From: a virus
Taxonomy: Duplodnaviria > Caudoviricetes
IMG/VR virus record: IMGVR_UViG_3300037657_000155
Coordinates: 1-25,987 of that record
Reading direction: 5' to 3' (one strand)
Length of the DNA: 25,987 bases
A model generated the notes under the pieces. The model was not told the origin of the DNA, did no database searches, and was given only the letters and a program-made list of their open reading frames with translations. This document shows, piece after piece, positions 4,971 to 24,368 of the stretch; positions within the stretch are counted from its first letter, which is position 1, and every line of letters begins with the position of its first letter. Made by a program: the position numbers and the translations under genes.

Positions 4971-6340
4971 TGAATTTAAAAGACGTGTCCATAGGTTTTA
5001 CCCACGCACTCAACAAGGGGATCCCCGAAATAGATGAACGCGCGATCCGAAACGAAGAACTGGGAATGAGAAAAGACACCCACGCCCTCCAGCTGAGAAA
5101 AGCGCAGCGGGAAGAGGAACTCTTGACGGCAATAAAGGGTCATGTTGACGAATACCGGAACGCGGTGGCGAACCTTCCACCAGGTCCGGCTATCGGAGGG
5201 GGAGTACCTCAACAGCAATCTCCAACAAGTGTCCAACAATCTCCAACACAATCTCCAACGTTGGCACCGACCGTAACGACATCCGGGCAGCCGAACGTTG
5301 ACAGCGGATCAGGAACGGTCATAGCGCAGCCGCCTCCGCAAGCACCGCCACAAGCACAAAGGCAGCAAACCACACCGGGGCCAGTAGAACTCCAGAACAA
5401 CGACCCGGTGACGAACCCGCCGCAAAACGAACCGGCACTTCAAGAACGCGGCAAGATGATGATGAAGATCCATGACACGCTCCTGGCGAATGGCCAGTTT
5501 GACGCGGCCAATAAGATTCAGAAGGCCGAACTCGACAACATTTTTACGATTGCGAAGATATCACCACAGGGAGCCATGAAGGCATGGAACTCCAACCCGT
5601 GGATCACAAAGAAATATGGGCTGGTGTCTCCTAAAGATATTACCCAAAAGGGTGAGTGGAGCTTCATGAAAATAGGCGGCGACGGCCTCGTCCGTTGGAA
5701 CAAAAACGGAACGTTTGAGATGGTCCAGAAGCCAACCGCAGCCGGAGGGAAGGCACCGACACCGCAGATGTACGTCGAGAAGCCCATCGGCCCGAACTCT
5801 CAGCAGAAATTCCAGTGGAACCCGCAGACGGGCCAGCACGACATACCATTCGGCGCACCATACCGCATCCACAAACCCGATAGCGGCGGAGGGAGCGGCG
5901 GAGATGGCAGGGGCGGCACGGCTGATACGCGGGAATTCAGAATGCACCTTGGCCAGCTCAACGGCCTCTATAAATCCATGGCTGGCATCCAGAAGGGCGT
6001 TGACCCGATTACACAGCAGATCATACCGCAAGATCAGATCGAGGCGGCAAAGGCTACGATCCAGGGGCAGATCAACAGCCTCGAATCACTCATGCAAGAA
6101 GACTACCCCGATCACTGGGCACGGTATCGCAAACAGCCCAAGGCCGCCGGAGCTATCGGCGGAAACGGGAAACAGGATTACAAGGCAAACAAAACCGGCA
6201 ACATTTCCAAAGCGGCTGATTATTTCCGCGATAATGCCGGCACACTTGGCCAAAAAGCCATGTATGACAAGCTCATAGCGGCAGGCTACAGCGAGGACAG
6301 CATAAAACAGGGATGGAAACAATTTAAAGGCGTACGGTAA
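4970..6340 (+). CDS. Putative internal virion/DNA-transfer protein, 456 aa
   Basis: TAATG stop/start coupling at 4968-4972 and a GGAGGTG SD. N-terminal coiled coil, Pro/Gln-rich linker, GSGGD linker and C-terminal LIAAGYSEDSI helix; lies between the pilot-like and giant genes. Confidence 0.7.
   Translation: MNLKDVSIGFTHALNKGIPEIDERAIRNEELGMRKDTHALQLRKAQREEELLTAIKGHVDEYRNAVANLPPGPAIGGGVPQQQSPTSVQQSPTQSPTLAPTVTTSGQPNVDSGSGTVIAQPPPQAPPQAQRQQTTPGPVELQNNDPVTNPPQNEPALQERGKMMMKIHDTLLANGQFDAANKIQKAELDNIFTIAKISPQGAMKAWNSNPWITKKYGLVSPKDITQKGEWSFMKIGGDGLVRWNKNGTFEMVQKPTAAGGKAPTPQMYVEKPIGPNSQQKFQWNPQTGQHDIPFGAPYRIHKPDSGGGSGGDGRGGTADTREFRMHLGQLNGLYKSMAGIQKGVDPITQQIIPQDQIEAAKATIQGQINSLESLMQEDYPDHWARYRKQPKAAGAIGGNGKQDYKANKTGNISKAADYFRDNAGTLGQKAMYDKLIAAGYSEDSIKQGWKQFKGVR
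5216..5259 (+). repeat. Short coding direct repeat CAATCTCCAAC x3 (QSPT units)
   Basis: Copies at 5216-5226, 5237-5247 and 5249-5259. Confidence 0.85.
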
Positions 6341-6354
6341 CGGGAGGACAAAGC

Positions 6355-9300
6355 GTGGCTAACGACAACTTTCTTGATGAACTCGCCGGAACAACGACAA
6401 TAGCGGGAAAAAAGGCAGAAAAACCGGCAAAACGAGGATTTCTTGATGAACTGGCCGGGACAACGGAAACGTTTGGCCCCGACACGGACGATCGAAGCAC
6501 CTACCGGAAGGTAGGGGAGGGCATGGTAGGAATTACGCGGGAAGGCGTAAAGGGCGTTGCCCGCGGCTGGCTCCAGGCGAACAAGGGCATAGGCTCTGCC
6601 ATCGAGTACCTAGGACGAATAGGCGACCAGTACACAGGCTCGCCTCCGGAGTGGGGTATAGACGAGGTCGGGCCGGAGCATTTAGGGACGCCCATACCGA
6701 AAGCCGACCCGAACGGGCCGACCTATGAACCACCACCGGGACCTCCAAAGGAAGGAGAAACGACACGGTTCGGGAAACAGATACGCCAGTATTGGGATGA
6801 GCCGTTAAAGAAAGTTGAGCCGGAAGTCGGGTCCATTTATGACATAAAGGATCCGGAGGGCTTTTTCAAGTGGGGAGCTGGAGCGCTGGGACAGATGGGG
6901 GCACAGGTGGCCATAACCGCACCCTTCATGATCCAGGGTAAGGCTGTCCAGATGGCCCAGGTTGCGCCGGAGGTGGCGAAGACGACCCTGGGCAAGAAGG
7001 CATTGTCGTATCTTGTCGAGTGGGCAAAGCTCAAACCCATGGACGTGCCCATTGCCATGATGGAAGGGGGAGAAATCCTCGGCGGCCAGATCGAACGTCT
7101 TGAGAAAGGGGAAACCAGGGAACTCAGCCCACTTCGGGGATTAGCCGCAATATTCATCGCGTCCAAATTCGAGGAACTCGGTACCGAGAAGGCCACGGCC
7201 AAGCTGCTCAAATTTGGTCCCGACGTTGCTGAATTCGCGAAGAAGGGGTTGTGGAACCGCATAAGCCAGTCCGCGCTGACACAAATGCTCGGTGAGGGAT
7301 CGGAAGAATTCTTCCAGGCATACGCAGAACAATACGGTATTAATCCGAATGACCTGCTGACCAGGAAACAGTTTCTGGAGGCAGTTGATGCAGCGGCAGC
7401 CGGGGCAGTGGGAGGCTTTGGCATCGGCGGAGTTACCGGCGCAATCGCACGCAAGACATATGAAGCAGGAACGAAAGATACGACGAAAGCCGGCGAACCA
7501 GTCACGGGAGAACTGGGCGGGCAACCGGCAACGCAGCCGCCTTTCGAGGGACAGCCAGAAACACAACCCGCGACGACACCACCTGGAACGCAACCGCCAA
7601 CGATGCCACCACCTCCACAACCGACTCCACCTGGATCACCCGTTGACGGACAGGCAACCGCTATTGTCGAACAGGTAAAAAACTCTTTAGAAAACGGACA
7701 GATCACGGCCGAGCAGGCAGGAGTCATCAGACAGAAGGCAGCGGCAGTTCTGGGTGAACAGCACCCGGAAATTCAGCGCATGGACCGCGTCATTCTGGAA
7801 CACGCGCGCATGGCCAACCTTCCATCCGGCATGGCTGACGGGATACGGATGGCACAGGAAGCGCAAAAGGCAGCTGAAGAGTCAGCGATATTGCCAAGCG
7901 AACCCATGGACGAACTCGATGAGATGACCGTACCGGATATCGTTGAACCGCAATCGACAGTGTCCTCAGGCGATGTTTTGGAGCTTGGCACGAAAACCAT
8001 TGAGGGAAAAGCACTTACTCCCGGCGGATATATAGCACCGGATGAAAAAGAAATTGAACGGTCAAAGAAACTACTCTCCCTCGCGAGCGACATAGGCGAC
8101 CAGGAGGCAGAAATACCTTCCTCTGACACCACAGTAACGACCAATTTAAAAGATGACGAAAAGTTTAGTGGCACTAAACAAGAATCGGCCAATAAATCGA
8201 CCAGCTCGGCTTTTTCAATAGGAGACAGGGTAACACGGGGAGGGCGAATTGGAACGGTGGCTCAACTATATCAGCCAACCGAAGACCAGCCCACCATAAG
8301 ACTTTACGTGAAGTGGGATGAAGACCCAAATAAGCAGCCGAATGAATTAACTTCGATGGCCAGCGCAGCCCCGGAAAGTGAATTTAAGAAAATAACTGAC
8401 CAGAAAGCCGTTACTGACAAAAAAAATAAAGGAGAATGGGGTGAAACATCGGTGGCGGTAGCATTGCAGCTCAAGCATCCTATTCCGCCGGATGTCCTCG
8501 CCAAATATCCCGATATAGCACGGCAATTCGGCGGGAAAGTGCCGAAAGAATCGCAGACCGCCAAGCAAGAAAATGGAGATATTTCTGCCGCCTCCGACGC
8601 AATCAGGAGAAAGCACCCCCATGCCGGAGCCATGTCTTTTGATGAAATGCCGGATGGCCTCACCCGCACGGAAGCTGACAACGCCCTGGCTGACGAACTT
8701 GCACAAACGATATGGGGATTCACCGAAAAGCAGAGAGATAATTTAGGCAGATCAGAGTATCGGCTCGAACACGAAGAGATCGAGGCGCCGCCATCCAAAA
8801 AGGGCTACGTTTCGACGAACGGCATAATCCTCGGCAAAGCCCCGAACGGCACATGGACGTATGGTTACAATATCAACATTAACAACGGCGGTCAGGGCTG
8901 GTACCCCGGGATCTACGAACGCAAACAATATGACACCCGCGAGGCTGCCTTGCTTGGGGCCATACAAGACTATCGGAATAACTTAGAGAAGCGCGTGAAA
9001 GACGAACAATCAGCAACCGTGAAAAAAGAAGCCAACATTTTACGTTCCTGGTTATCCAGCCTTGAGGCAGGGGCACAGACAAAAAAAGCACCCGCTAAAA
9101 AGGGGAACCATGAAGTAACGAAAGAGGAAGAGACAGCGGCAGCCGAGGCGAAGGTGAAAACGCCGAAGACAACAAAGAAGCCCAAGGCTATCACCGAAGA
9201 CACCCCCTTTCCGTACTACACGTTTTTCAAACAGTACCGGTACTTTTTGCCGCTCCTGCAGAAGATAAGGAAAGGACTGGACCTTGCCGGCGGTAGCGAT

Positions 9301-12300
9301 TCCCGTTGGAACAGCTTTGTCCAATTATTCAACGAGGCCATGAACAACGGGGAAATCCCCATGAAGTTACCGCCGTCTGGTTTGGAAGGACAGGAACGGG
9401 GCACGGTGGAGTGGACCGAGTCGGAAGTGTTCGACCTTATAACGGACGAAATGGCGCGCTTTCAGAATGAGGGCGGGAAAGCACAGGGACAGGAACATGA
9501 GATTGAAACGGCAGCAATCCCGCTGACTGAAGAGCAGCTCCAGGATGACGGTTTTATCCCGGAAAAGGATATTGAGGCGATTGTTGACACAACTGAGATC
9601 AATATTATAGGTTTAAAGGAGGAATTATATGAAGAAGGGTTCAGTGACACCGAGATCGGCCAAATTGTTAGCGGCCTTGAAGCAGCAAGTGATAATAAAA
9701 TCGCTGGCAAAGAGTTTGCTGAAAGACTTGCGGCCCTCAAAGAACAAGTAAAAAAATCCAAAACCGAGCAGCCAGCCCCCACGACAGACGGGGAACTTTT
9801 CAACACCAACGACATCTTCACCCTCTCCGGCAACCAGCCCGTGAAGCAGGGGGAATTCAAAACCGCAAAGGAACCGAAAGCGGAACTGTTTGCGCGTCCA
9901 AAACCAGTATTTCAAACCGAGCGGGAAAAAGAAGAAGGGCAGAAGAAGAAGCTGGCGGAAGCCCTCGCGGCAAAGAAAAAGCCTCAAAAGATCAACGTTC
10001 CACCAACCGAGGACCTTTCAAAGAAATCAATCAACGAGCTGGTCACAGACGCCTTCGATGTAATCAACCACTTCATCGAAGAAGATGAGGGAAAGGTATC
10101 GGATACCCGTATCGACTACGGTAAGACTGAGGGTATCAAGCAGGAGCTGTACCAGATGCTACGGCCGATCCTTGAAGAGATCGCAAAGCGGGCCACGACA
10201 AAGGGCCTTGATGTAAAGGCGTATCTCTTTGGTGCCGTTGACGCGCAGCAGGAAGGCAAGGCGAAACAGTTTTACGAAGCGGCAGCCGCGCAGTATGCCG
10301 AGGAACAAAATAAGCCGGTGCCGGAAGTGGTAAAAACGGAAGCCCCGAAGGGAATCGAAGAAGGCCCGGCTGAAGAGGGATTTTCGTGGGGGCCGTTGTC
10401 CAGCACGCTTGCAGAACACATAGAGAATATTGACGCCGAGCTGGGGGCGCGACTCAAAAAACTGGCAGGCCCGAGGTTCTCCGATTACGAGGCAGTGGTT
10501 GACGAAATCAAGAAGGCCATGAAGGAAGCGACCGAACGGGGAGAAACAGAAAAAGCCAATAATATAAAGGAAGAGCTGGGTGTAACAACGGGAAACTTGA
10601 GGATGCCGACGGCGGAACAGCGGGCAGCATCCCGGGCCATGGAAGGGAAGGAGACGTCAACAGAAACAACCCAGGAAACCGGGGCAAAGAAGCCACCTTT
10701 TGGTGCGACAGAGCTTCTTGGCACCATACCGGACAAGGAAAACAACCTCGAAATATTCATTGCTGGAAACATCAACGGCAATAGCTTTTCCGTATCCATC
10801 AGAGATAACGACTCCATGGAATTTTTGCCGACAGTAAGAATATTCCCGTCGGAAAAACAAGCGTGGGAAGTGGCCGGAGAGATTGCCCAGGGAAAGAAAG
10901 CCAAAATAGACCCACCCGACAGCTGGCGCGACAATCTTATCAAGGCCCGTATGTATGCCGGAATGTTGGGCGTGAAGTACGAGGGAGATTGGTACACCTC
11001 GAAGATCGTCGAGGCCATAGACAAGAAACTGGCGGAAAACGAAGCATTAAAACCAGCGGAACCACCGAAGGGCAAAACGTTTGACATGAACCTCTCCGAG
11101 AGGATCCGCGACAAAACGCTTGAGAAGGTGAAGCCATACCTCAACCCAAACAACAGCGAGACGGCCTTGCTTGCCACCATCGAGAAGTCAGCCGACGAGG
11201 CATACGGCGAGATAGTGGATGAAATTTTAGGTTCAAATGAGCCCTTGTCCACCACGCAGAAGGTCTACCTGGACACATGGGACAAGAAAAGCTTCGCCGA
11301 GGCGGTACTCAATTACATCAAACGCCACGACCTTTTGACCAAAAAACAGGAAGCGGAGGCACCGAAGGAAACACCGAAACCCGAAGTTTACAAAACCGGT
11401 GACCGGGTCGTCATCTCCGACAAGCATTACAGCCTACCCATGCGTGGAAGGCACGGCGTCATCAAAGCGGTGGGCGGCTACACCATGCAGGCTATTTTCG
11501 GTGGCCATACAACACACAACGTCACCTACGAAGTGGAAACCGACAACGGATTGACCCTCATGTCCATGCGGGCCGAAGACCTTGAGCGCGAAACCGGGCC
11601 GTTTGCCGGCAAGCTCGTGAAGGATGTTTACTTCGATAACCGTTACCAGACGCCCGAGAACCTCTTTGGCATGATCTCGTACAGCAAAAAACACGCGCAG
11701 AACTCACGGGAAGCAGCTGACCGGGCACGAAAAGAGGCCAACAGGGCTTCTCATTTACGTGTAGCGGCAAGCTACGACAAAGACGCGCAGAAGTACCAGG
11801 ACGCTTTTGATGCGTGGGCAAAAAAATACCCGGAAGAGGCGGAGAGGCTCAGGCCAAAGCCGAAGAAGCAGCCACCGCAACAGACGGCGGCACCGACACC
11901 GGAAACCGGAACCGTTACCAGCATATCAGATGTACACGATGCACTCGACAAGCTGAAAAGCGTCGGGTTGACCCTGGTAAAGACAACGACCAAGAACGGG
12001 CATCCCGTGTGGAACCTTGGGGGCAACACCAGGAACTACAAGGACGCGATCAAGAAGGCGAAAGGAATATGGTACGGCCCTAAGAAGGTATGGTCATTTT
12101 ACGGTACCGAGGATCCGACGGAGAAGATCATTAAGGCTTTCGATACTATGTATAGTCACCCGGACATGGTGCCATGGCAATCCAAGAAAGGAGAACAAGG
12201 GAAGTCACCCCTCACGACAGACAGGGGGGCATTGATACCAAAGTCGTCTATCGGAAAGAACAAGTACGGCCAGGAGATATTCGAGGACGAGAAGGGCGTC

Positions 12301-15300
12301 CGCTCCATCATGGAGGGACCCATCCGGATAACCGAACCAGTTGGCCTTACTCCTACCAGAAACGGAATAACGTTTGATGTAGAGCGTAAAGATCCTCGAT
12401 TTCTAACGACAGACGAGAACACACAAACAACAGCCGCACCGAATGCACCGACCGGGCAAGGAACCCAACCCGTGCAACCGCAGGCACCATCACCAACCGA
12501 AGAACGCATGGACGCCGACAAGATAAAGGCCGCCCGCGCCATCATGGCAAAGGTCGATGACGCGCTCGCCAACCAGAAAACGTTCACCCGCGAGCAGCTC
12601 ATGAAGTGGGGTGAGGAAGCATACGGCGGCACCATCGCCAGTGGCGCGCTTACATGGAAGGACCTCTTCGACGCCATGGAGCTGGGTATAAACCGCTACC
12701 TCGGACAGGGCCAGCGCTTATACGATCCCACGAGAGGCATGGTCATCGACGCCCGTGACACGATTGACAGCATACGGGAACACGTTCTTGACAAGATCCC
12801 CTCGCAGCATGGCTTCAGAACAAAGGAGATGGACGAGTACCAGCAGTTCTCGACGCCCCCGGATCTGGCTTACCTCATGGCATGGGTGGCAAACATCAAG
12901 CCGGGTGAGACGGTCCTGGAACCATCGGCTGGCGTGGGCGGCCTCGCCGTATTTGCGAGGAACGCAGGGGCGAAGGTGTACGTCAACGAACTTTCGCAGC
13001 GGCGGGCAAGCCTGCTGCGGCAGATGGGTTTCGGGCAGGTTTTCACCGAGAACGGGGAACAGCTCAATAACATCCTTCCTGATCACATAAAGCCAACCGT
13101 AATCATCATGAACCCGCCCTTTTCTGCAACGGCGGGCCGGATGCAGGGGAGGAGAAGTCCCGAGAACCTCATCAGGCATATTGGCCAGGCGTTGTCACGG
13201 CTGGAGCCGAATGGCCGCCTCGTGGTGCTGACCGGCAAGGGGTTGTTCGGCGAATCGAAAACCTTCAACGAGTGGCTGGACAACATCGATGTCACCAATG
13301 ACGTAATCGCCGACATCACCATCTCCGGCGAGGGCTACAGAAAATACGGCACCACCTATGATAACCGCTTGATTGTGATTGACAAAACGAAAACGAATGC
13401 TACAGTAATACAAGGGGAAGTCAGCGACATCAAGCATGCCGCTGCCCTCCTGAAAGGAGTTCGCGATGCGAGAAACAGTGTCACAGAACAACCATCCGCT
13501 CAACCAGGCAGCAAAGAAGTTTCTCAAGGATCCCGACCCGTCGATGCTGTATTGCCTCCAGCTGGTGGAGGAACAGTGGAACGAGGGCAGGGTACCGCTC
13601 AACAACGTCCGGGGCCAGGAGGTATACCCGTTCTTCGAGGAGATGGCGGGGCTGGACCCGAAACGGGCCTGGAACCTGCTCCAGAGGGACGGGGACCTGA
13701 CGGATCAGAAAGAACTGCCGACGATATCAGCGGACAACCTGGCGTGGGCAGTAGTAGACCAGCTGACGAGCATGCTGGAAGCGGCGGATTACTAAACACC
13801 GAGCCAGCCCTTACCATACAACAAACAGAAGAATACACCGACGAAGACCTCGAATCGGGCAACATCTTTGAGGAATACACACCTTCCATAAAAATTGAAG
13901 GGGCGCAGCCGCACCCCTCGGAACTTGTCGAAAGCGCGGCCATGGCAACCGTAAAAGCGCCAAAAGCGAGCTATGTGCCGAATATCGACAAGAAACTCGC
14001 CGAAACCGGGGCATTAAGCGACGTCCAGCTCGAAGCAATCACCATGGCTGGACAGGCCCACGGAGAAGTCCTCGGGTCCGGCGTCTATCTTGACGCGCAC
14101 GGCAACGTTGCAACCAGCGGGAGCCAGGAAAACACAACGTTCCACGCATTCCGCAAGGGCTTCTTCATCGGCGACGGCACCGGCGTGGGCAAGGGAAGGG
14201 AGATCGCCGGCATTATCCTCGATAACTGGAACCGGGGCAGGCGCAAAGCCCTATGGATAAGTCAGAATACGGACCTTATCCACGACGCACAGCGCGACCT
14301 CAGAGCTCTTGGTATGGACCCGAACCTGGTAATAGATTATGCCGGCGTGAAATTCGGCCAGCCCATCAAGCAGAAAGAGGGCATCCTTTTCATAAGCTAC
14401 GATACGTTAAAGTACAAAAAGGGCACGGTTCGCCGGATCGACCCCGTCGTAGCGTGGGCAGGGCAGGAATTCGACGGCGTCATAGCCTTTGACGAATCCC
14501 ACAACATGGGAAATGCATTGTCTACCAGGGGGAGGAGGGGAACGAAAAAGCCGTCCATGAAGGCAGTGGTGGGCGTTGAGCTGCAGTCGCGTCTTTACAA
14601 TTCGCGGGTTGTGTATGCGTCAGCTACCGGCGCAACGGAAGTTGCGAACCTTTCCTACTGCGACCACCTTGGGTTGTGGGGGAAGGGAACGCCCTTTTCC
14701 AGCAAGCGGAATTTCATCGAGCAGATCTCCGGTGCGGGCATCGCCGGAATGGAAATGATCGCCCAGGGGCTCAAGGCCATGGGATCCTATGTTGCCCGGA
14801 ACCTTTCCTTCGACGGGGTGAAGTACGAAACCATCGAGCACGAGCTGACCGAGAACCAGAAGGCCATTTACGACGAGATGGCCCGGTCATGGCAGATCGT
14901 CCTGCAGAACATCCACGCCGCACTCCAGGCGACCGGCGTAACCGCGACCAACCACACCGGGCAGGTCGTCACCAGGAACGGCAACGCCAGAAAGAATGTC
15001 ATGGGCGCATTCTGGGGCGCGCATCAGCGGTTTTTCAACCAGATCATCACGTCCATGCAGACTCCGACAGTCATCAAGGCCATAGAGAAGAATCTCGCAG
15101 ACGGCGACGCAGCAGTGGTGCAGCTCGTGAACACCAACGAGGCGCAGACCGACCGGGCAATGGCCAGACGGGAGGAAGGCGAACGCCTGGAAGACCTTGA
15201 TCTCACCCCCCGTGAGGGGCTGATGAACTACCTGGAACACAGCTTCCCTGTCCAGCAATACGAAGAGTACACCGATGACAACGGAAATATTCGTTCGCGC

Positions 15301-18300
15301 CCTGTTCTGGACTCGAAGGGGAACCCTGTCATCAACCGGGAAGCTGTGGCCATGCGTGACGCGCTGCTGCGGAGGCTCGGCATGCTGAAGGTGCCGGATG
15401 CACCCCTTGACATGATTATCCACCATTTCGGCATCGAGAAGGCAACGGAGGCAACGGGCCGCTCGAAACGGCTCGTAGACAAAACAAACGACCAGGGCGA
15501 GAAAGAGCGGGTCGTGGAACGGTGGAGCAAGGCAAAAGGGCTCAACGACATCCAAGCCTTCATGAATGACAAGAAACAGCTTCTCGTTTTTTCCGACGCT
15601 GCCGGTACCGGCAGGAGCTTCCACGCGGACAGGACAGAGAAGAACCAGCGGCTGAGGCACCACTATTTATTACAGCCCGGCTGGAGAGCTGACCGTGCTA
15701 TCCAGGGGCTGGGCCGGACCCACCGGAGCAACCAGAAACAGCCGCCTTACGTCCACCTTGTCACAACAAACCTGAAGGGGCAGAAACGGTTCATCTCCTC
15801 TATTGCTCGCCGGCTTGAACAGCTGGGGTCCCTTACCAAGGGGCAGCGCGACACGGCGACGCAGGGCATCTTCAAGTTGAAGGACAACCTTGAAAATTCG
15901 CATGCACCCCAGGCGTTCATCCGGCTCATAAACACGATATTCAGGGGCGGCATTGAGAATCTGTCTATGGCGGAATTTGAACAGGAAACGGGCATGAGGC
16001 TGACCGACGACCAGGGTCAGCTCAGGGACGACATCCCCGAGATAACCCAATTTTTGAACAGGCTTCTTTCGCTGACCGTGGACCGGCAGGAGGAAGTGTT
16101 TAACGCCTTCGACGCCCACCTTGACCGGATCATCGAAAAGGCGGCGGCAGACGGCACCCTCGATGCGGGCATGGAAACCATTTTGGCGAAGGGGGCGAAA
16201 CGGACCCGGGAAGAAATAGTCTACACCGGCCCCCAGGGAGAGCAGACAAAGTACAACGAGATCGAGATCTCCGAGGACGCTGTCACCGTTAATTTTCAAT
16301 CGAGTAAAGTGTGGGCAGCCTCAGGGTATGTGGTGAACAAAAAGAGCGGTGTTGTATGGGCGGCAAACAGGGAACGGATCACGACCGATACCAGCACCGG
16401 CGAAGTGATGGCCGTTGTAACCCTCACGAGCCCCCGGGGCACGGTCAGTGTCGTGGAGGCAAAAGACCTTAAGGACGGGGAAAAATACGATCGGATTGAC
16501 GACATGGCTCAGGCCGAGGCGATATGGGGTGAACAGCACGACATGGTGCCGAAGACGAAGACGCGGAAGATCCACCTCATTACAGGTGCGCTCCTGCCCA
16601 TATGGGACCGGCTCCCCCAGGAACACGTCAGGGTTATGCGGCTCAAGCTCGACACGGGCGAAAAGCTGCTGGGCCGGCTGATTCCCGACAAGAGCCTCAA
16701 CGGTGTCCTGAAAAAGCTGAATGTTGACAAGTCAACTGCAGCGTACACGCCGGAACAGGCTGTGAATGCCATCCTGGACAATGGGGAAACGATAACTCTT
16801 GCGAATGATTGGACGCTGAAGCGCGTGAAAACCCAGGGCATGGACCGGATCGAAGTCACCGGCGAAACGCTGTGGCGGTTCGAGACCCAACTTGAACAAA
16901 GCGGCGCCCTCATCGAGCGCATAAGCTACAAGACACGAGTATTCATCCCTACCGGAGACGACGGGATCACGGTCATGAAAGAAATCCTGGCCATCAGCCC
17001 CATCTTTGACGTGGAAGGCGGGGGTGGACCCTTGACAACCAGCATAGCAGAACGTAAGCTTGAGTATGGCGAGAAAGCAAAAGAGCAGGGTGCTTTATTC
17101 AATACCGACACCGCCCAACCTGGACGACCTTCACGTCGAAAACCCGAAACCATACTGCGTCAACAGGAAGTTGTCACGGAAAGAATCGGCAGCTATCGCG
17201 CTGGAACAAGAAAGATCGAAAACAGCGATGATGTTGCTGACATAGCCCGCAACCTTCTCGACGATCCCCAGGAAACATTCGCAGCAATCCTTATGAAAGA
17301 CGACGGTACTGTCCACAGCGTCCACCGTGTGAGCAGGGGCGGGACAAGTTCATCGATCGTGCAGCCAACTGTGGCAATCGGACAGGCCCTCAACACCGAG
17401 GGAGTGACCGGCCTGTGGTTCATCCACAACCACCCGTCGGGTGTAGCGGAGTTGTCAACGGAAGACAAGGACGTGGGAGTACGCCTGTTCAGGCTCGCCC
17501 AGGGATCGGGGGTAATGGTTCGCGGGATCATGGCCGTCACACCAATGGAGTATGCTGCGATGAACTACGGGGCTTTTGCAGTCCCGGATAAGACCGCCAA
17601 AATGCCAAAACGCAAACAGGCGGAAACGCTCCCCGTTGTCGAGCGGCGTTACAGCAAGCAGAAGACCGGAAGGCTGGCCGCGTCAAGCCCTGCTTCGGCA
17701 ATAAAAATATTCAACAAAGCTGGCATCAAAGAAGACAGTCCAGACATTACCGTCGGTTTTTTCGACGTTCGGAATAAATTAATTAGTACCATCACGATAG
17801 AGAGGCTGACGCCGATCCGGGGAGAGATCCAGCGCATGCTGCTCCAGGAAGCTGAGCGGAGGAACGCCTCGAACATGATCGTATATGCCCCGCAGCGAGT
17901 ACTTCTCGAAGGAGAAGCGAAAAATATTTCCAATTTCGGGAAGGCAGCCGGCCTCCAGGTACTGGACATCATCGACGCTGGTGGCAGTATGCAGCAGCGG
18001 GGCATGGTAACCCCAGACGCAAACCCGACGTTCTTCAAGCTGACCACCGCGGCTGACATGGAGAACCTCTCCTTTGACATCCGGCCGCCGAAGACGCCAC
18101 GGTTCTCCGTGGACCAGGTGAGACAGTTCCTTGCACTGCCCTTGAAGCAGTGGAAGAACATAGGAAAGGTACAGGTCATAAAAACGGCCCGCGATCTCCC
18201 GGTGCGGTTCATGGGATATGTTCGGGAGGGGGACACAATCTTCGGTGCATACGACCAGGAGACGGACACCACCTATATCATCGCCGACTCGATACCGAAC

Positions 18301-21300
18301 GCACGGGCTGCAATCGTTACCCTCATCCATGAGACAATCGGGCATCGGGGGATCACGGCGATTTTCCGGAATGCCGACGTGGATCTCATCTGGCAGCAGA
18401 TCGCGAAAGCATACCAGGGAACGCCGCTCATGGATCGTATTGTCAAAGGGTATGGCCAGAAAATGGGGACCTTGAGGCTTCCCCTCGACTTAAACGACAA
18501 GGACGACAGGAGGATAGCCGTCAGTGAGTTCATCGCCCACATGGCGGAGGCACGGGAAGCCACCCCGGTATGGACGAGGATCGTCGGGATCATCCGGGCA
18601 GCGCTCAGAAGGATTGCTCCGAACCTTACGTGGTCGGACGCCGACATCCTCCATCTGATTGACCGGGCACGAAGCTATTCCGGTGTCGTGCCGAAGGAAA
18701 CTACGGGGACGTACTTCAAAAAGGGGATGGAAGGCTCTACAACGGGCAGCACCGTCGTTGACGACCTCCTGCAAAAGATTGAGGCATTGGCGCCTCCGGA
18801 GCCAAAAGCTCCATCGTTAGAGATCAAGGACTGGGTTCGGGACCATGCAAAGGCTGCGGCGGTAACCATCATGTCGCACATGCCGGAGAACCTTCCCCAC
18901 GCCCATTTCCTCGAACGGGTACTGAAGAACCCTCTCTGGTATGAACACCCGGTATTGAAGCAGCTCTTCAACGTCATGGCCCACCACCGGCAGGAGACGT
19001 ATCACGAGCTTTTCTATGACTTCAACGACGTGGGTGAAGGCGCAACCGTGTCGGAGGCGCTTGCGAAACTGCGCAAAAGCGACAAGGCGGGCTATGAACA
19101 GCTTACGAAACTGCTCATCGAGGCTGACACGGAATGGGTTCGCGAGAAGGAGTGGACTTTTACAGACCGCATCAGAACCATGAAGGTGTCGGAGGATGTC
19201 AAACGGGTTGCTTTACTGATCCGGTCAGCCTTCGACAAGATGCTCGACGCCAGGCAGGCGCCTATGAAGGAACTGCTCAAGAAGCTCGAAGAAGAGGGAT
19301 ACGAGGAGGACCCGTTCTCCCTTGATGAGGAAGGGAAAAAGAATTTCCACGTTTTTACCGTGAGGCCCACGAAAGAATTCGACAGTTTCTGGACCGCTTC
19401 GGGGAAGGAGAGGCAGGAGCGGGCAGGGCTTCCCTACCACCAAGGGATAAACTACATCATGGGACACGGCCGGGCCGGAGGCATAGAGGTGCAGGCGATC
19501 CATTTCTCGAAAGAAGCGTTCACCGAACAGACGGCGGAAGATTGGTGGAATGATCATAAACGGTTTTTCCGCAAGGCACACAAGGATTTTAAAGCCGAAC
19601 TGCGGCAGACCATCATAGGGGCATTACAGGTCATGGACGAATGGCGGGGATATTACTTCCCGCGGCTGAGAAAGACCGGGAAAATAGTCATTACCGCTTA
19701 TAGGGAAAACAATTTCGGCGACCGTGACTATATCCGGGAACACGGCGGGAAATACTGGAGCGAACTGCGAAAGACGGAACTGGAAAAAGAAGGGTATCAA
19801 GAGATAAAGGTATCTGATTTCCAGAAATTACCGGAATCGGTCTACCTCAACATTAAGGCGATCGACATACAAAAGGCAATCGATTACGCTGTAACGGGAA
19901 TGAAGAACACGACAAGCGCGGACCTTCTCGCGAAATTCAACGAGGATCTCATTGAACAGGCCGTCAACATGATCCGCGAGCGTGGCATCGAGTCAACGAA
20001 AATACACCGGAAAACAACGGGGCGCGTCGTCCAGGGATTCATCACCGACCCTGTCGAGGCGTTCTTGAGGTATATGTCGGGCGTGGCCGGCGGCATGGCA
20101 AAGGGGGAGGTATCCAGAAAATCTACCGAATTGCTGTCACAGATCAACCCGGCGTCCGAGGCGAAGGCATATGACACGGCCAAGCGGTACATCGAGGAAA
20201 ACCTGAGAAACGTTGACGGAGCAGACCGGATCATGGCATATGCAAAATCAATAGCGACGCTCAAATTCCTTGGCTTTAACCCACGGTCCGCCGTTGTCAA
20301 CATGACGGCCATGGTAACATCCGCTCCGGCTGCCATCCACCAGTATGCCGGCGACAAGAAGGTCAGCATGGTGACGGTGGAAAAAGAGATCGCACGTGCC
20401 GGCATTTCCTACGCAAAGCACATGGCGGGCAAGCCCCTGGAGGCAGAGGAACAGATCATAGCGGAACGTATTACCCGGGAAGGGTACGACGCCCCGCAGC
20501 TCACCCGGGATGCATTGGGTGCCATGCAGGGCGGGCTTGAACGCTCGTGGGAACGGATCATGAAAGTGGCCATGTACATGTTCGGCAAGACCGAGCAGTG
20601 GAACAGGGGCACGACGATCCTTGCGGCATACAAGGTAGCAAAGATACATTTTGCGAAAGAAGGGCTGAAAGGGGATGCGTTACAGGAAGCGGCATACAAG
20701 GCGGCGATCGAGGCCACCGACAAGGCCCATGCCTCGTATGGAAAGTCGAATATGCCTGAGTGGGGGCAGGGAACGTCGGTATCCGCCAAGGTTGGCCAGG
20801 CCATGTATGTCTATGGCAACTTCGGCCACAACTATGTCCAGCTCCTGTACGATCTCGGCGCTAAGAAGCACAACATTGTTGGTTTTACCTGGGCGCTGGC
20901 AGCACCTGTGATAATTGCCGGTGGGGCAGCGTGGCCTTTTAAGGACGAGATGCTCTGGCTTATCAATGGAATGCTCCGAATGCTGGGCATCACCACAGGG
21001 GTGGACAAGTTTGTGTGGGACAAGACGAGGAAACACCTCGGTGAACAGGCAGAGGTCCTGGGACGCAGGGGGATATTCGGGCTGGCAGGTGTAGATATTT
21101 CAGGATCGCTCGGGATAGGGCTTGGTATACCTACAGGGCTATTGGGCCTGACAGGTGCGATGGGCGGTGTTGCAGAAGATATTGCTAAAGCCAGTCATTT
21201 CGTCAGCATTGGACAGACCGGAAGGGCGCTTGAGAAAACACTGCCCACGGCAGCGTCAAACATCTTCCGGGGAATACGGGAAGCCAAAACGGGAGTAACG

Positions 21301-21684
21301 ACCGAAAAGAGCCGTGTCCTGTGGGACAAAGGAGGAAAGCCATACAGACCAACGGCAGGAGAGACGGCAGCACGGATCATAGGCTTTCAGAGTTCACGGC
21401 AATCGGTAGCGCGGGAGAAAAGCAATGAGATGTACCAGGCAGAACAGAATTTTCTAAAAAGGAAGGATGCTCTCTACGAGGAGTTACGGGCCTGGGCGGT
21501 GGACCCGAAGAGGACAAATATTGGGCTGACGAAAATCTACAAGAAACAGAGTGAGTATAACCAAGCTATAATGAAAGCCGGACTTGTGGGAAGGGTGCCG
21601 TTGATTAAATCATCAGAATTGAGCCGGCAAATTAAGGGGGTGATGGTGCCGGTAAAGAAAAACCTTTTGCGGCTACAACGATAA
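6355..21684 (+). CDS. Giant polyvalent virion-ejected protein, 5109 aa (DarB-like in concept): N6A methyltransferase + Strawberry-notch helicase + JAB/RadC x2 + zincin-like peptidase + membrane-type termini
   Basis: GGAGG SD and GTG start; uninterrupted 15.3-kb frame. Motifs QQFSTPP, LEPSAGVG, NPPF, GDGTGVGKG, FDESH, YASATG, GRTHR, HNHPSG, HETIGH; hydrophobic Gly/Ala segments near both ends. Confidence 0.92.
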   Translation: MANDNFLDELAGTTTIAGKKAEKPAKRGFLDELAGTTETFGPDTDDRSTYRKVGEGMVGITREGVKGVARGWLQANKGIGSAIEYLGRIGDQYTGSPPEWGIDEVGPEHLGTPIPKADPNGPTYEPPPGPPKEGETTRFGKQIRQYWDEPLKKVEPEVGSIYDIKDPEGFFKWGAGALGQMGAQVAITAPFMIQGKAVQMAQVAPEVAKTTLGKKALSYLVEWAKLKPMDVPIAMMEGGEILGGQIERLEKGETRELSPLRGLAAIFIASKFEELGTEKATAKLLKFGPDVAEFAKKGLWNRISQSALTQMLGEGSEEFFQAYAEQYGINPNDLLTRKQFLEAVDAAAAGAVGGFGIGGVTGAIARKTYEAGTKDTTKAGEPVTGELGGQPATQPPFEGQPETQPATTPPGTQPPTMPPPPQPTPPGSPVDGQATAIVEQVKNSLENGQITAEQAGVIRQKAAAVLGEQHPEIQRMDRVILEHARMANLPSGMADGIRMAQEAQKAAEESAILPSEPMDELDEMTVPDIVEPQSTVSSGDVLELGTKTIEGKALTPGGYIAPDEKEIERSKKLLSLASDIGDQEAEIPSSDTTVTTNLKDDEKFSGTKQESANKSTSSAFSIGDRVTRGGRIGTVAQLYQPTEDQPTIRLYVKWDEDPNKQPNELTSMASAAPESEFKKITDQKAVTDKKNKGEWGETSVAVALQLKHPIPPDVLAKYPDIARQFGGKVPKESQTAKQENGDISAASDAIRRKHPHAGAMSFDEMPDGLTRTEADNALADELAQTIWGFTEKQRDNLGRSEYRLEHEEIEAPPSKKGYVSTNGIILGKAPNGTWTYGYNININNGGQGWYPGIYERKQYDTREAALLGAIQDYRNNLEKRVKDEQSATVKKEANILRSWLSSLEAGAQTKKAPAKKGNHEVTKEEETAAAEAKVKTPKTTKKPKAITEDTPFPYYTFFKQYRYFLPLLQKIRKGLDLAGGSDSRWNSFVQLFNEAMNNGEIPMKLPPSGLEGQERGTVEWTESEVFDLITDEMARFQNEGGKAQGQEHEIETAAIPLTEEQLQDDGFIPEKDIEAIVDTTEINIIGLKEELYEEGFSDTEIGQIVSGLEAASDNKIAGKEFAERLAALKEQVKKSKTEQPAPTTDGELFNTNDIFTLSGNQPVKQGEFKTAKEPKAELFARPKPVFQTEREKEEGQKKKLAEALAAKKKPQKINVPPTEDLSKKSINELVTDAFDVINHFIEEDEGKVSDTRIDYGKTEGIKQELYQMLRPILEEIAKRATTKGLDVKAYLFGAVDAQQEGKAKQFYEAAAAQYAEEQNKPVPEVVKTEAPKGIEEGPAEEGFSWGPLSSTLAEHIENIDAELGARLKKLAGPRFSDYEAVVDEIKKAMKEATERGETEKANNIKEELGVTTGNLRMPTAEQRAASRAMEGKETSTETTQETGAKKPPFGATELLGTIPDKENNLEIFIAGNINGNSFSVSIRDNDSMEFLPTVRIFPSEKQAWEVAGEIAQGKKAKIDPPDSWRDNLIKARMYAGMLGVKYEGDWYTSKIVEAIDKKLAENEALKPAEPPKGKTFDMNLSERIRDKTLEKVKPYLNPNNSETALLATIEKSADEAYGEIVDEILGSNEPLSTTQKVYLDTWDKKSFAEAVLNYIKRHDLLTKKQEAEAPKETPKPEVYKTGDRVVISDKHYSLPMRGRHGVIKAVGGYTMQAIFGGHTTHNVTYEVETDNGLTLMSMRAEDLERETGPFAGKLVKDVYFDNRYQTPENLFGMISYSKKHAQNSREAADRARKEANRASHLRVAASYDKDAQKYQDAFDAWAKKYPEEAERLRPKPKKQPPQQTAAPTPETGTVTSISDVHDALDKLKSVGLTLVKTTTKNGHPVWNLGGNTRNYKDAIKKAKGIWYGPKKVWSFYGTEDPTEKIIKAFDTMYSHPDMVPWQSKKGEQGKSPLTTDRGALIPKSSIGKNKYGQEIFEDEKGVRSIMEGPIRITEPVGLTPTRNGITFDVERKDPRFLTTDENTQTTAAPNAPTGQGTQPVQPQAPSPTEERMDADKIKAARAIMAKVDDALANQKTFTREQLMKWGEEAYGGTIASGALTWKDLFDAMELGINRYLGQGQRLYDPTRGMVIDARDTIDSIREHVLDKIPSQHGFRTKEMDEYQQFSTPPDLAYLMAWVANIKPGETVLEPSAGVGGLAVFARNAGAKVYVNELSQRRASLLRQMGFGQVFTENGEQLNNILPDHIKPTVIIMNPPFSATAGRMQGRRSPENLIRHIGQALSRLEPNGRLVVLTGKGLFGESKTFNEWLDNIDVTNDVIADITISGEGYRKYGTTYDNRLIVIDKTKTNATVIQGEVSDIKHAAALLKGVRDARNSVTEQPSAQPGSKEVSQGSRPVDAVLPPAGGGTVERGQGTAQQRPGPGGIPVLRGDGGAGPETGLEPAPEGRGPDGSERTADDISGQPGVGSSRPADEHAGSGGLLNTEPALTIQQTEEYTDEDLESGNIFEEYTPSIKIEGAQPHPSELVESAAMATVKAPKASYVPNIDKKLAETGALSDVQLEAITMAGQAHGEVLGSGVYLDAHGNVATSGSQENTTFHAFRKGFFIGDGTGVGKGREIAGIILDNWNRGRRKALWISQNTDLIHDAQRDLRALGMDPNLVIDYAGVKFGQPIKQKEGILFISYDTLKYKKGTVRRIDPVVAWAGQEFDGVIAFDESHNMGNALSTRGRRGTKKPSMKAVVGVELQSRLYNSRVVYASATGATEVANLSYCDHLGLWGKGTPFSSKRNFIEQISGAGIAGMEMIAQGLKAMGSYVARNLSFDGVKYETIEHELTENQKAIYDEMARSWQIVLQNIHAALQATGVTATNHTGQVVTRNGNARKNVMGAFWGAHQRFFNQIITSMQTPTVIKAIEKNLADGDAAVVQLVNTNEAQTDRAMARREEGERLEDLDLTPREGLMNYLEHSFPVQQYEEYTDDNGNIRSRPVLDSKGNPVINREAVAMRDALLRRLGMLKVPDAPLDMIIHHFGIEKATEATGRSKRLVDKTNDQGEKERVVERWSKAKGLNDIQAFMNDKKQLLVFSDAAGTGRSFHADRTEKNQRLRHHYLLQPGWRADRAIQGLGRTHRSNQKQPPYVHLVTTNLKGQKRFISSIARRLEQLGSLTKGQRDTATQGIFKLKDNLENSHAPQAFIRLINTIFRGGIENLSMAEFEQETGMRLTDDQGQLRDDIPEITQFLNRLLSLTVDRQEEVFNAFDAHLDRIIEKAAADGTLDAGMETILAKGAKRTREEIVYTGPQGEQTKYNEIEISEDAVTVNFQSSKVWAASGYVVNKKSGVVWAANRERITTDTSTGEVMAVVTLTSPRGTVSVVEAKDLKDGEKYDRIDDMAQAEAIWGEQHDMVPKTKTRKIHLITGALLPIWDRLPQEHVRVMRLKLDTGEKLLGRLIPDKSLNGVLKKLNVDKSTAAYTPEQAVNAILDNGETITLANDWTLKRVKTQGMDRIEVTGETLWRFETQLEQSGALIERISYKTRVFIPTGDDGITVMKEILAISPIFDVEGGGGPLTTSIAERKLEYGEKAKEQGALFNTDTAQPGRPSRRKPETILRQQEVVTERIGSYRAGTRKIENSDDVADIARNLLDDPQETFAAILMKDDGTVHSVHRVSRGGTSSSIVQPTVAIGQALNTEGVTGLWFIHNHPSGVAELSTEDKDVGVRLFRLAQGSGVMVRGIMAVTPMEYAAMNYGAFAVPDKTAKMPKRKQAETLPVVERRYSKQKTGRLAASSPASAIKIFNKAGIKEDSPDITVGFFDVRNKLISTITIERLTPIRGEIQRMLLQEAERRNASNMIVYAPQRVLLEGEAKNISNFGKAAGLQVLDIIDAGGSMQQRGMVTPDANPTFFKLTTAADMENLSFDIRPPKTPRFSVDQVRQFLALPLKQWKNIGKVQVIKTARDLPVRFMGYVREGDTIFGAYDQETDTTYIIADSIPNARAAIVTLIHETIGHRGITAIFRNADVDLIWQQIAKAYQGTPLMDRIVKGYGQKMGTLRLPLDLNDKDDRRIAVSEFIAHMAEAREATPVWTRIVGIIRAALRRIAPNLTWSDADILHLIDRARSYSGVVPKETTGTYFKKGMEGSTTGSTVVDDLLQKIEALAPPEPKAPSLEIKDWVRDHAKAAAVTIMSHMPENLPHAHFLERVLKNPLWYEHPVLKQLFNVMAHHRQETYHELFYDFNDVGEGATVSEALAKLRKSDKAGYEQLTKLLIEADTEWVREKEWTFTDRIRTMKVSEDVKRVALLIRSAFDKMLDARQAPMKELLKKLEEEGYEEDPFSLDEEGKKNFHVFTVRPTKEFDSFWTASGKERQERAGLPYHQGINYIMGHGRAGGIEVQAIHFSKEAFTEQTAEDWWNDHKRFFRKAHKDFKAELRQTIIGALQVMDEWRGYYFPRLRKTGKIVITAYRENNFGDRDYIREHGGKYWSELRKTELEKEGYQEIKVSDFQKLPESVYLNIKAIDIQKAIDYAVTGMKNTTSADLLAKFNEDLIEQAVNMIRERGIESTKIHRKTTGRVVQGFITDPVEAFLRYMSGVAGGMAKGEVSRKSTELLSQINPASEAKAYDTAKRYIEENLRNVDGADRIMAYAKSIATLKFLGFNPRSAVVNMTAMVTSAPAAIHQYAGDKKVSMVTVEKEIARAGISYAKHMAGKPLEAEEQIIAERITREGYDAPQLTRDALGAMQGGLERSWERIMKVAMYMFGKTEQWNRGTTILAAYKVAKIHFAKEGLKGDALQEAAYKAAIEATDKAHASYGKSNMPEWGQGTSVSAKVGQAMYVYGNFGHNYVQLLYDLGAKKHNIVGFTWALAAPVIIAGGAAWPFKDEMLWLINGMLRMLGITTGVDKFVWDKTRKHLGEQAEVLGRRGIFGLAGVDISGSLGIGLGIPTGLLGLTGAMGGVAEDIAKASHFVSIGQTGRALEKTLPTAASNIFRGIREAKTGVTTEKSRVLWDKGGKPYRPTAGETAARIIGFQSSRQSVAREKSNEMYQAEQNFLKRKDALYEELRAWAVDPKRTNIGLTKIYKKQSEYNQAIMKAGLVGRVPLIKSSELSRQIKGVMVPVKKNLLRLQR
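12841..13390 (+). other. N6-adenine DNA methyltransferase domain of the giant protein
   Basis: QQFSTPP (12841), SAM-binding EPSAGVG (12919), NELS, catalytic NPPF (13111-13122), LEPNGRLVVL. Confidence 0.9.
13379..13406 (+). promoter_or_regulatory. Intragenic sigma70-type promoter with extended -10
   Basis: TTGACA at 13379-13384, 16-nt spacer ending in TGC, TACAGT at 13401-13406 (TGn-TAnnnT); AAAGGAG SD at 13453-13459. Confidence 0.7.
13466..13795 (+). CDS. Nested +1-frame gene inside the giant ORF; 109-aa acidic helical protein of unknown function
   Basis: Has its own promoter-like sequence and an AAAGGAG SD 6 nt before the ATG. Translation looks globular, while the giant-protein frame over the same interval is G/P/R/A-rich low complexity. 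Confidence 0.78.
   Translation: MRETVSQNNHPLNQAAKKFLKDPDPSMLYCLQLVEEQWNEGRVPLNNVRGQEVYPFFEEMAGLDPKRAWNLLQRDGDLTDQKELPTISADNLAWAVVDQLTSMLEAADY
13860..16180 (+). other. Strawberry-notch-type SF2 helicase/ATPase (AAA_34 plus Helicase_C_4-like) of the giant protein
   Basis: LSDVQLEAI, Walker A GDGTGVGKG (14170-14196), Walker B DESH (14491-14502), YASATGA, SDAAGTGRSFHA, motif VI QGLGRTHR (about 15703-15726). Confidence 0.9.
17032..17060 (+). promoter_or_regulatory. Intragenic sigma70-type promoter
   Basis: TTGACA at 17032-17037, 17-nt spacer, TAAGCT at 17055-17060; ATG 5 nt later at 17066; lies in the linker before the JAB domain. Confidence 0.6.
17066..17245 (+). CDS. Candidate nested, leaderless +1-frame ORF, 59 aa (MARKQKSRVLYSIPTPPNLDDLHVENPKPYC...)
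   Basis: ATG sits at the expected transcription start of the 17032-17060 promoter; no SD; same +1 frame as 13466-13795. Confidence 0.4.
   Translation: MARKQKSRVLYSIPTPPNLDDLHVENPKPYCVNRKLSRKESAAIALEQERSKTAMMLLT
17215..17560 (+). other. JAB/RadC-like domain with intact metal-binding motif
   Basis: PQETFAAILM, then FIHNHPSGVAELSTED (HNH at 17425-17433), matching E..HxH..S..D. Confidence 0.88.
17665..17990 (+). other. Second, degenerate JAB/RadC-like domain
   Basis: RadC-like framework (SSPASA..VGFFDVRNKLI..EAERRNASNMIVY..GLQVLDII) but no HxH motif. Confidence 0.6.
18100..18680 (+). other. Zincin-like metallopeptidase domain typical of polyvalent proteins
   Basis: GAYD..TYIIAD, LIHETIGHRG (18328-18345) and downstream EFIAHMAE (18526) as candidate third ligand. 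Confidence 0.75.
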
Positions 21685-21751
21685 GAACCATCCTTACCGA
21701 GACAGCTTGCATTTTTATGATTATATTTATACGTAATCTGGAGGTATTACT

Positions 21752-21922
21752 ATGGAAAATATCTTGCTCTTAATCGGGATTGTCGCTGCCTGGTTTGTTC
21801 TGCAGAAGTACATTCTTCCCCGCTTCGGGATATCGACCTGACTGTCCAACAGCTGCAGCCCCGGGGACCGGGGTGCTGATAAAGATAAGAAAAAAAGTAG
21901 TGCTGATGATGAAGTCCGTTAG
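21752..21922 (+). CDS. Probable small membrane-anchored selenoprotein, 56 aa (MENILLLIGIVAAWFVLQKYILPRFGIST-U-LSNSCSPGDRGADKDKKKSSADDEVR); not in the ORF track
   Basis: GGAGG SD at 21740-21744, ATG at 21752, N-terminal hydrophobic helix. In-frame TGA at 21839-21841 is followed by an open frame with Cys five residues later and a GC-rich hairpin; TAG at 21920-21922. Confidence 0.7.
21855..21878 (+). promoter_or_regulatory. Candidate bacterial SECIS element
   Basis: CCCCGG (21859-21864) pairs with CCGGGG (21868-21873) around a GGA loop; extendable by GCA/TGC with a bulge. The loop starts with G, 23 nt after the UGA. Confidence 0.62.
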
Positions 21923-22046
21923 ATAGTGCAGCGTCATGTCCATTGCTTGTTATGTTAAAAGAGTATCAATGTTCTCTTGGAACAGGTAAGTCATAGGCCC
22001 GTTCCGCCTCTCAACGTACCATAAAATCGTATATTTCTTACATAAA

Positions 22047-22088
22047 CTACAGAAAAAGCTTGATTTCTGTAGGAATTGAGCGAATAAT
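22047..22088 (+). promoter_or_regulatory. Putative hup promoter overlapped by a 9-bp inverted repeat
   Basis: TTGATT at 22060-22065, N17, AATAAT at 22083-22088; inverted repeat CTACAGAAA (22047-22055) / TTTCTGTAG (22064-22072). Confidence 0.45.
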
Positions 22089-22189
22089 TCATTGAGATGC
22101 TCGATTCTACGGGGGATCACGCAACAGGCACAGCTTCTGCGCCTGATAATCATAGATATACCAACATCATACCCAAGGAGGTAGTAATA

Positions 22190-22528
22190 ATGACAAAGGC
22201 AGAAATCGTAGAGAAGGTAGCAGCAGAAATTAAGGTTTCCAAAGCAGCCGCAGGAAAGGCGCTGGCTGTGATTACCGGTTCTATCGCGGATGCTCTAAGA
22301 AAGGGTGGCAAAGTCACCTTGATAGGCTTCGGAACATTCTCCGTTGCCTCCCGGAAGGCCAGAAAGGGAAGAAACCCCCAGACCGGAAAAGAGATCAAAA
22401 TTGCTGCTAAGAAGGTTCCCCGGTTCTCTGCAGGTGCAGCATTAAAAGCAGCGGCTACCGGCAAGGCAGCCCCGGCAAAAGCAAAGAAAGCCCCTGCCAA
22501 AAAAGCTGCAAAACCGAAGAAGAAATAA
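22190..22528 (+). CDS. hup: DNA-binding protein HU with Lys/Ala/Pro-rich C-terminal tail, 112 aa
   Basis: AAGGAGG at 22175-22181 supports ATG 22190 (MTKAEIV); signature GFGTF..RKARKGRNPQTGKEIKI..VPRF; tail KAAPAKAKKAPAKKAAKPKKK. Confidence 0.96.
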   Translation: MTKAEIVEKVAAEIKVSKAAAGKALAVITGSIADALRKGGKVTLIGFGTFSVASRKARKGRNPQTGKEIKIAAKKVPRFSAGAALKAAATGKAAPAKAKKAPAKKAAKPKKK

Positions 22529-22539
22529 CTCACACTACC

Positions 22540-22567
22540 AGGCGGGTCTTCCGGGTCCGCCTTTCTC
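22540..22567 (+). terminator. Probable intrinsic terminator of hup
   Basis: AGGCGG/CCGCCT stem extended by G-U pairs and followed by TTCTC, 12 nt after the stop. Confidence 0.6.
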
Positions 22568-22587
22568 CCCCACCATCTTCCACGCTA

Positions 22588-22617
22588 TTGCCTGAAATCC
22601 CCAAGGAAGTGTATACT
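22588..22617 (+). promoter_or_regulatory. Putative sigma70 promoter of dinB (leaderless geometry)
   Basis: TTGCCT at 22588-22593, 18-nt spacer, TATACT at 22612-22617, ATG 5 nt later; no SD at normal spacing. Confidence 0.55.
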
Positions 22618-22622
22618 CAATT

Positions 22623-24319: not shown

Positions 24320-24345
24320 AAGCCTGACACTGAGGCTTTGTATTC
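24320..24345. terminator. Possible terminator hairpin downstream of the oxidoreductase
   Basis: AAGCCT (24320-24325) / AGGCTT (24333-24338) stem with AT-rich flanks, about 30 nt beyond the minus-strand stop. Confidence 0.3.
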
Positions 24346-24368
24346 TGGGTTTTGTCCAGCTGCTGATG

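Follow-up and report, generated by a model that had tools for sequence, protein, structure and literature searches.

A gene nested in the methylase–helicase linker of a giant DarB-like phage protein has stand-alone relatives in bacterial chromosomes

The window, a stretch of 25,987 nucleotides from a virus of the Caudoviricetes, carries on its plus strand a gene for a giant polyvalent (DarB-like) protein of 5109 residues (6355–21684). An adenine methyltransferase domain with QFSTPP and NPPF motifs, together with its last helix (12805–13470; PHROG matches at residues 2151–2350), is followed in the giant by a linker rich in Gly, Pro, Ala and Arg (13471–13854) and by a Strawberry-notch (Sno)-type SF2 helicase (13909–16176) with AAA_34 and Helicase_C_4 domains (E 4e-107 and 2e-80, respectively), the AAA_34 match beginning at residue 2519. 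A RadC JAB domain is also present. An adenine methylase with TP and NPP(Y/F) motifs preceding an SF2 ATPase of the SWI2/SNF2 type is the arrangement that defines DarB-like proteins, and P1 DarB is given as the archetype of this methylase–helicase dyad among polyvalent proteins (Iyer et al. 2017, PMC5512222). Upstream of the methylase, a helical segment with YGGTIASG showed, in a motif comparison, an inexact fit to the GXGU motif of the N-terminal LPD36. DarB-type proteins are described as injected anti-restriction factors (PMC5512222; PMC12810830), the mode by which their methylase–helicases protect DNA being proposed rather than demonstrated (PMC5512222). By analogy with P1 DarB, the giant is probably packaged, injected and protective against restriction.

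On the 3' side of the giant (21700–25987) the GC content falls, and HU-like (22097), DNA polymerase IV (22623) and oxidoreductase-like (24369) genes follow. Similarity of the window to the related loci L001 and L002 stops within about 300 bases after the giant, and this region may mark the edge of a prophage. What follows the giant differs among relatives; in L001 and L003 it is a small gene pair that by eye has the look of a toxin–antitoxin or abortive-infection system.

A complete ORF of 109 codons lies in the +1 frame of the giant gene on the same strand (13466–13795; ATG at 13466, stop at 13793–13795), and its product, P0001, is predicted to be an all-alpha protein. The initial annotation had described this ORF as running from the end of the methyltransferase to just before the helicase, and so it does: the last methylase helix, LLKGVRDA (residues 2365–2372), shares its DNA with the ribosome-binding site and the ATG, and the stop precedes the helicase at 13909. 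The proposed expression signals are likewise in place. A Shine–Dalgarno sequence AAAGGAG (13453–13459) stands 6 nt 5' of the ATG, and farther upstream a −35 hexamer TTGACA (13379–13384), written by the I-D-K codons ATT GAC AAA of the giant, is separated by 16 nt from the TACAGT of a predicted extended −10 element TG-n-TACAGT (13398–13406; TG at 13398–13399, TACAGT at 13401–13406). Four sites in 20 kb reach 10 of the 12 promoter positions, and the one at the nested gene is alone among these in having the TG; since the total of promoter-like sites (15) is not above that in shuffled sequence (11.9 ± 3.3), the promoter match alone proves nothing. Stop-free runs of at least 109 codons make up 2/206 in the +1 and 3/185 in the +2 frame of the giant, five over both off-frames, and ORF length by itself is weak evidence for a nested gene.

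A second +1 ORF in the giant (9629–9751, plus strand) encodes a basic, amphipathic peptide of 40 residues and is preceded by the Shine–Dalgarno sequence AAAGGAGG. Its 40 codons, Shine–Dalgarno sequence and ATG are kept in L001, L002 and L003; selection on it is ambiguous (pN/pS 0.187/0.286 in its own frame and 0.178/0.339 in the giant frame), and a nearby TTGACA (9584) is absent from L001.

In the close kin of the window the nested protein is exactly 109 residues long, with 83–94% identity. Among five distinct close sequences (L026 was excluded as a duplicate of L001), compared in pairs that are not independent of one another, dN/dS across the overlap was 0.26 in the nested frame versus 1.69 in the giant frame, and that of the giant frame was 0.15 and 0.08 in the two flanks. 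Comparing dN/dS in both frames, as had been suggested, thus revealed that selection switches to the nested frame over this interval. Consistently, variable columns at the first, second and third giant codon positions numbered 31/11/9 in the overlap and 44/27/108 and 26/17/121 in the flanks, and of 85 windows along the giant only two, both over the nested ORF, showed less variation at the third than at the first codon position. Across 29 loci, the nested frame contains 16% Leu and 4% Gly, and the giant frame of the same DNA 20% Gly with nearly no aromatic residues. The relaxed and Gly-rich giant frame agrees with the proposal that the giant protein uses the off-frame reading as a flexible linker.

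The initial annotation had proposed searching for stand-alone or similarly nested homologues, and profile searches found both. Viral loci were fished with the helicase alone, and after two loci with 70-aa matches (L024 and L025) had been set aside from 22, all 20 that remained (helicase identity 42–94%; three close kin and two related pairs included) contained a +1 ORF of about 110–140 aa with the same giant motif at its start, the giant frame being open across the nested ORF in each. Of 15 genome loci, 13 were matched by a profile built from the viral members, with E values of 1e-24 to 7e-5 for those held out of it. The two without a match have no upstream methylase motif (L036) or a shortened linker (L038), and in L031 a frameshift within the overlap disrupts the nested ORF. 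From 652 plasmid records found by tblastn, 8 of 40 listed were examined, picked by linker length. The four gammaproteobacterial ones, with long linkers, carry a nested homologue (E 5e-13 to 4e-9), and the four alphaproteobacterial ones, with short linkers, carry none. In all non-carriers (L036, L038 and L046–L049) the linker is short or the methylase motif upstream is lacking. Listed conjugation or mobilization genes adjoin the nested gene's module in three of the four plasmid carriers, tying the gene to the enzyme module and not to the virion. Three further nested copies (L054, L062 and L083) are also flanked by methylase and helicase, and all mobile-element copies that we found, in phages and plasmids and across several phyla, sit between the adenine methylase and the Sno helicase.

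The nested gene is absent from the gene tables of all four plasmid carrier records (one is unannotated, and the tables are incomplete). The expectation that standard gene callers would miss it needs correcting, since callers do sometimes predict it: 11 close homologues of 109 aa, mainly from short contigs, have already been called. GenBank phages gave no full methylase–linker–helicase match; a Pseudomonas F116-like phage has no helicase after its methylase and no nested homologue, and a viral scan with the member P0014 returned no matches. In Bacteroides phage BS-TP4, the same linker slot holds an unannotated +1 ORF of about 118 aa (L050, 3689–4054), acidic-looking and Trp-containing, with no detectable similarity to the nested family. 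Identity of the nested protein correlated with that of the helicase at rho 0.35, no better than methylase with helicase (0.37), and such tracking is therefore what shared descent gives.

Several of these loci have peculiarities of their own, noted by eye unless stated otherwise. The linkers of L012, L015, L016, L018 and L020 reach 300–440 aa and include extra acidic, helical-looking segments 3' of the nested gene, one of which resembles the window's giant at about residues 1225–1320. In L054 an intein-like insertion (6324–7025) splits the helicase at the Walker B motif and holds an off-frame ORF of 233 aa with the look of an endonuclease. On the Azospirillum plasmid L046, according to its gene order, the short-linker Sno methylase–helicase is flanked by a type I-E CRISPR cas cluster on one side and by a gene for a phosphorothioate-DNA restriction endonuclease on the other.

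For the start codon and the promoter, sites were anchored on giant-frame motifs alone in 35 loci, which left 27 carriers after 5 non-carriers and 3 near kin were removed. The giant's Asp, Asn or His codon that is able to form the ATG ended in T in 26 of 26 cases, against 11.0 expected from the codon use of each gene; the 27th carrier has a GTG start. The Shine–Dalgarno core is present in 23 of the 27, and the non-carrier L038 retains the ATG, compatible with a recent deletion. A perfect TTGACA on the I-D-K codons occurs in 11 of the 27 carriers and in none of the four plasmid carriers. All five close kin have it at the identical site, with TACAGT or TAAACT and the TG, and L018 has TTGACA-17-TATAAT. 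The −10 score was 3–6 of 6 in the 11 carriers with TTGACA and 0–3 in the other 16 (Mann–Whitney p ~1e-5, over lineages that are not independent), and it was at least 5 in 6 of the 11, against a background of 0.5%. AT-richness was considered as the cause of this covariation and rejected, the mean GAT share being 0.49 at loci with TTGACA and 0.47 at the others. The covariation, together with the promoter kept in the chromosomal copy L066 (below), lends indirect support to the promoter claimed at first, which on these sequence patterns is likely to exist in the lineage of the window and in a fair proportion of family members, though not in all.

The genome of the closest relative (L027, a Syntrophorhabdus record) contains a second match, a free gene between oxidoreductase-like and purA-like genes. 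Among 401 genomes of the phylum of L027, 15 matched at 16 places, 2 nested and 14 solo; among 301 genomes of the class of L032, eight matched, one nested and seven solo, and all seven solo copies are downstream of a class II aldolase-like gene; among 401 genomes of the phylum of L039, two matched, both nested. L039, a Rugamonas prophage, and L042, a Methylotuvimicrobium plasmid, offer models that can be cultured. The solo chromosomal homologues total 21. When methylase and helicase were searched by tblastn against 22 loci with about 1.5 kb on each side, only the nested L062 matched; the stand-alone homologues thus have neither enzyme nearby, and the gene is therefore autonomous and kept by its hosts. 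Together with the plasmid copies, they argue against a role solely in cis or solely in the virion. Inspection by eye within about 1.5 kb revealed housekeeping genes around the solo copies (purA-like, class II aldolase-like, PAS kinases) and no defence genes. In all seven solo pairs tested pN was below pS (pN/pS ~0.35–0.5). Two clades of solo copies are well supported: A, with 11 rows (99/99), and B, with 7 rows (100/100) and syntenic in seven of seven genomes. Because the trees are unrooted with an unresolved backbone, they are compatible with either direction of change for clades A and B.

The three other solo copies (L061, L066 and L069) branch among nested members. Their −1 frames retain traces of the linker: in L061, at a locus without methylase or helicase, the linker-like frame is open and free of stops, and in L069 it contains one stop. 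L066 (G103:C115) has kept IDK with a strong promoter match, TTGACA-18-TAGAAT, and, in the −1 frame, LLRGLRNAR as a remnant of the last strand and helix at the methylase end, the giant frame being interrupted by three stops. Judging from such traces, these three look like recent escapes in the direction from nested to free, and L066 in particular is, by its sequence remnants, an intermediate of gene escape.

It is these comparative tests, rather than length or promoter match, that lift the ORF far above chance, and we regard it as a real gene with very little reservation. Chance stop-free off-frame runs as long as this one do exist in the giant (the five mentioned above), as would be expected if the ORF reflected how the giant uses its codons and were no gene at all; the switch of dN/dS between frames, the held-out profile matches and the confidently predicted fold all speak against this, and a profile of the 11 solo copies of clade A, run against 8084 segments, recovered the ORF of the window (E 9e-7), making a mere by-product wildly improbable. 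That the ORF begins where the methylase domain ends could also mean that it is reached by a +1 frameshift and supplies an alternative C-terminal domain to a shortened methylase. However, in many loci an in-frame stop lies shortly upstream (four codons before the ATG in close kin), an ATG or GTG with a Shine–Dalgarno sequence stands at a fixed site, the T-ending codon is invariant in all 26 cases, and solo copies exist, which renders frameshifting very unlikely.

AlphaFold2, run with 58 sequences, predicted for P0001 a compact helical domain (pLDDT 85, pTM 0.79). The protein had no match in Pfam, PHROGs, NCBIfam or PADLOC; when 19 members were compared with Pfam, 10 weak families appeared, each matching one member only, and a sequence search of the PDB returned only designed helical proteins near E 1e-3. 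With the model as query, Foldseek gave no match at E ≤ 0.001 in the PDB or BFVD, and the best VIA-align match had a Z of 3.6 (rmsd 4.4, 82 aligned), with none at Z ≥ 5; these searches with a predicted structure establish neither a novel nor a differing fold. Matches of P0001 in the ESM Atlas were all under 0.9, and a solo copy had no usable match there. Two fusions were found: in the singleton P0041, which may be a chimera, the family domain is fused C-terminally to a GmrSD_C/type IV restriction nuclease domain, and in P0034 (two members) it is fused to a helical-looking extension of 55 aa.

In phage lambda, Rz1 is encoded in the +1 frame of Rz. For the pair in phage JC1, the whole of Rz1 is described as lying inside Rz on the same strand and in a shifted frame (PMC9144972). 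The nested gene shares with it the principle of a complete same-strand gene within a gene in a shifted frame. However, the outer frame is here a dispensable linker of the gene for a 5109-aa enzyme, and the nested product is predicted to be soluble and helical, has a predicted promoter of its own and has stand-alone chromosomal relatives. The host gene itself resembles the Strawberry-notch subtype of the DarB dyad, in which a methylase with TP and NPPF motifs precedes a Sno-type SWI2/SNF2 ATPase, found in phages and conjugative plasmids (PMC5512222); the main text of that paper does not use the words 'linker', 'overlap' or 'low-complexity', and its section 14 mentions no nested gene. P1 Ulx, too, comes from a small gene that accompanies a DarB-type gene, but ulx is downstream of darB and not nested, and hhalign detected no similarity between the nested protein and Ulx (probability 0.1%, E 0.49). 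Polymorphic toxin systems have orphan immunity genes that, like orphan antitoxins, are small, effector-linked and exchangeable, and are kept alone in chromosomes. Tight linkage to an enzyme gene and the existence of orphan copies recall such genes, the differences being that linkage is here by nesting instead of adjacency and that neutralization is putative. Ocr and ArdA are small acidic DNA-mimic anti-restriction proteins of mobile elements, and the nested protein is also small, mostly acidic and from mobile elements. A DNA mimic of the Ocr/ArdA type would have a strongly and uniformly acidic surface, which net charge does not suggest here: the window protein carries only a mild −8, members mostly −1 to −10, and 5 of 35 nested members are positive.

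As the best explanation, we propose, with a probability of about 0.4, that the nested product is an immunity-type inhibitor that binds and blocks incoming methylase–helicases, likely expressed from its own promoter. An internal sigma-70-type promoter would allow a lysogen or a plasmid carrier to make the protein when the late giant gene is not expressed. The protein would then neutralize the injected anti-restriction methylase–helicase of a related phage or plasmid, perhaps that of its own element too, and the invader's DNA would be left exposed to restriction. Nesting would keep enzyme and antidote inseparable during module shuffling, and hosts might take up the gene plus promoter as an orphan immunity gene. 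We favour this reading because it covers the linker-only position, the frequent constitutive-type promoter and host retention without the giant, and the inhibitor or superinfection-exclusion role put forward in the initial annotation thus remains the foremost hypothesis. It is supported by the enzyme linkage (20 of 20 viral, 13 of 15 genome and 4 of 8 plasmid loci), the different ORF in the same slot of BS-TP4, reminiscent of swappable immunity genes, the −35/−10 covariation, the 21 solo copies and the fusion of P0041 to a restriction domain. Counting against it are a perfect −35 in only 11 of 27 carriers and in 0 of 4 plasmids, the housekeeping surroundings of the solo copies, the housekeeping-like synteny of clade B (7/7), the short-linker alphaproteobacterial methylase–helicases that lack the gene (4/4), and a nested/helicase correlation (rho 0.35) explicable by shared descent.

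The solo copies and their neighbourhoods are better explained by a close rival, in which the protein acts on the host as a regulator or metabolic modulator, the linker is a mere tolerant shelter and hosts keep the gene for its cellular effect. Such a role fits the 18 solo copies of the two old clades, which are under purifying selection and lie among housekeeping genes. It also fits the class II aldolase-like gene that precedes the clade B copies in seven of seven genomes and the ability of unrelated ORFs to occupy the linker slot. Free cargo, however, should turn up at various places in an element, and the mobile-element copies were found solely in one linker; helicase-based fishing biases towards this result, and the profile searches are free of that bias. 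A host-directed role is accordingly a possibility that we hold tentatively. The protein could instead bind its own giant, as a chaperone, a holdase or a self-protecting antidote, while the giant is synthesized, packaged or transferred, an accessory role like that of Ulx. P1 DarB acts with accessory proteins including Ulx (PMC12810830, PMC9144972), and a small, mostly acidic, helical protein that accompanies the module in phages as well as in conjugative plasmids would suit this function, but 21 copies are kept at loci without methylase or helicase, a constitutive-type promoter would be superfluous for co-expression, and similarity to Ulx is lacking, so that we consider service to the giant rather unlikely. 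Returning to the inhibitor, its fullest form, in which an antidote carried in the linker and expressed from an internal promoter was repeatedly lifted out with that promoter by bacteria to give a one-gene anti-anti-restriction defence against phages and plasmids, is a speculative extension.

Embedded genes and the class of the giant are already known; none of the four libraries searched contains the nested family, and the main texts of the mostly open-access literature searched gave no report of the nested gene. Linkers of low complexity in giant proteins of phages and plasmids can be off-frame shadows of real, old genes, and annotation therefore misses a whole protein family. The solo copies that retain a promoter and giant-frame remnants capture the step from a nested gene to a free host gene, and such intermediates are rarely seen; here an old and widespread gene within a gene appears to have been set free by hosts repeatedly, with the intermediates still visible. 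For DarB-type methylase–helicases, the family also provides a candidate partner or inhibitor that is small and foldable, and if the nested protein blocks these enzymes, it would constitute a new and directly testable layer of defence.
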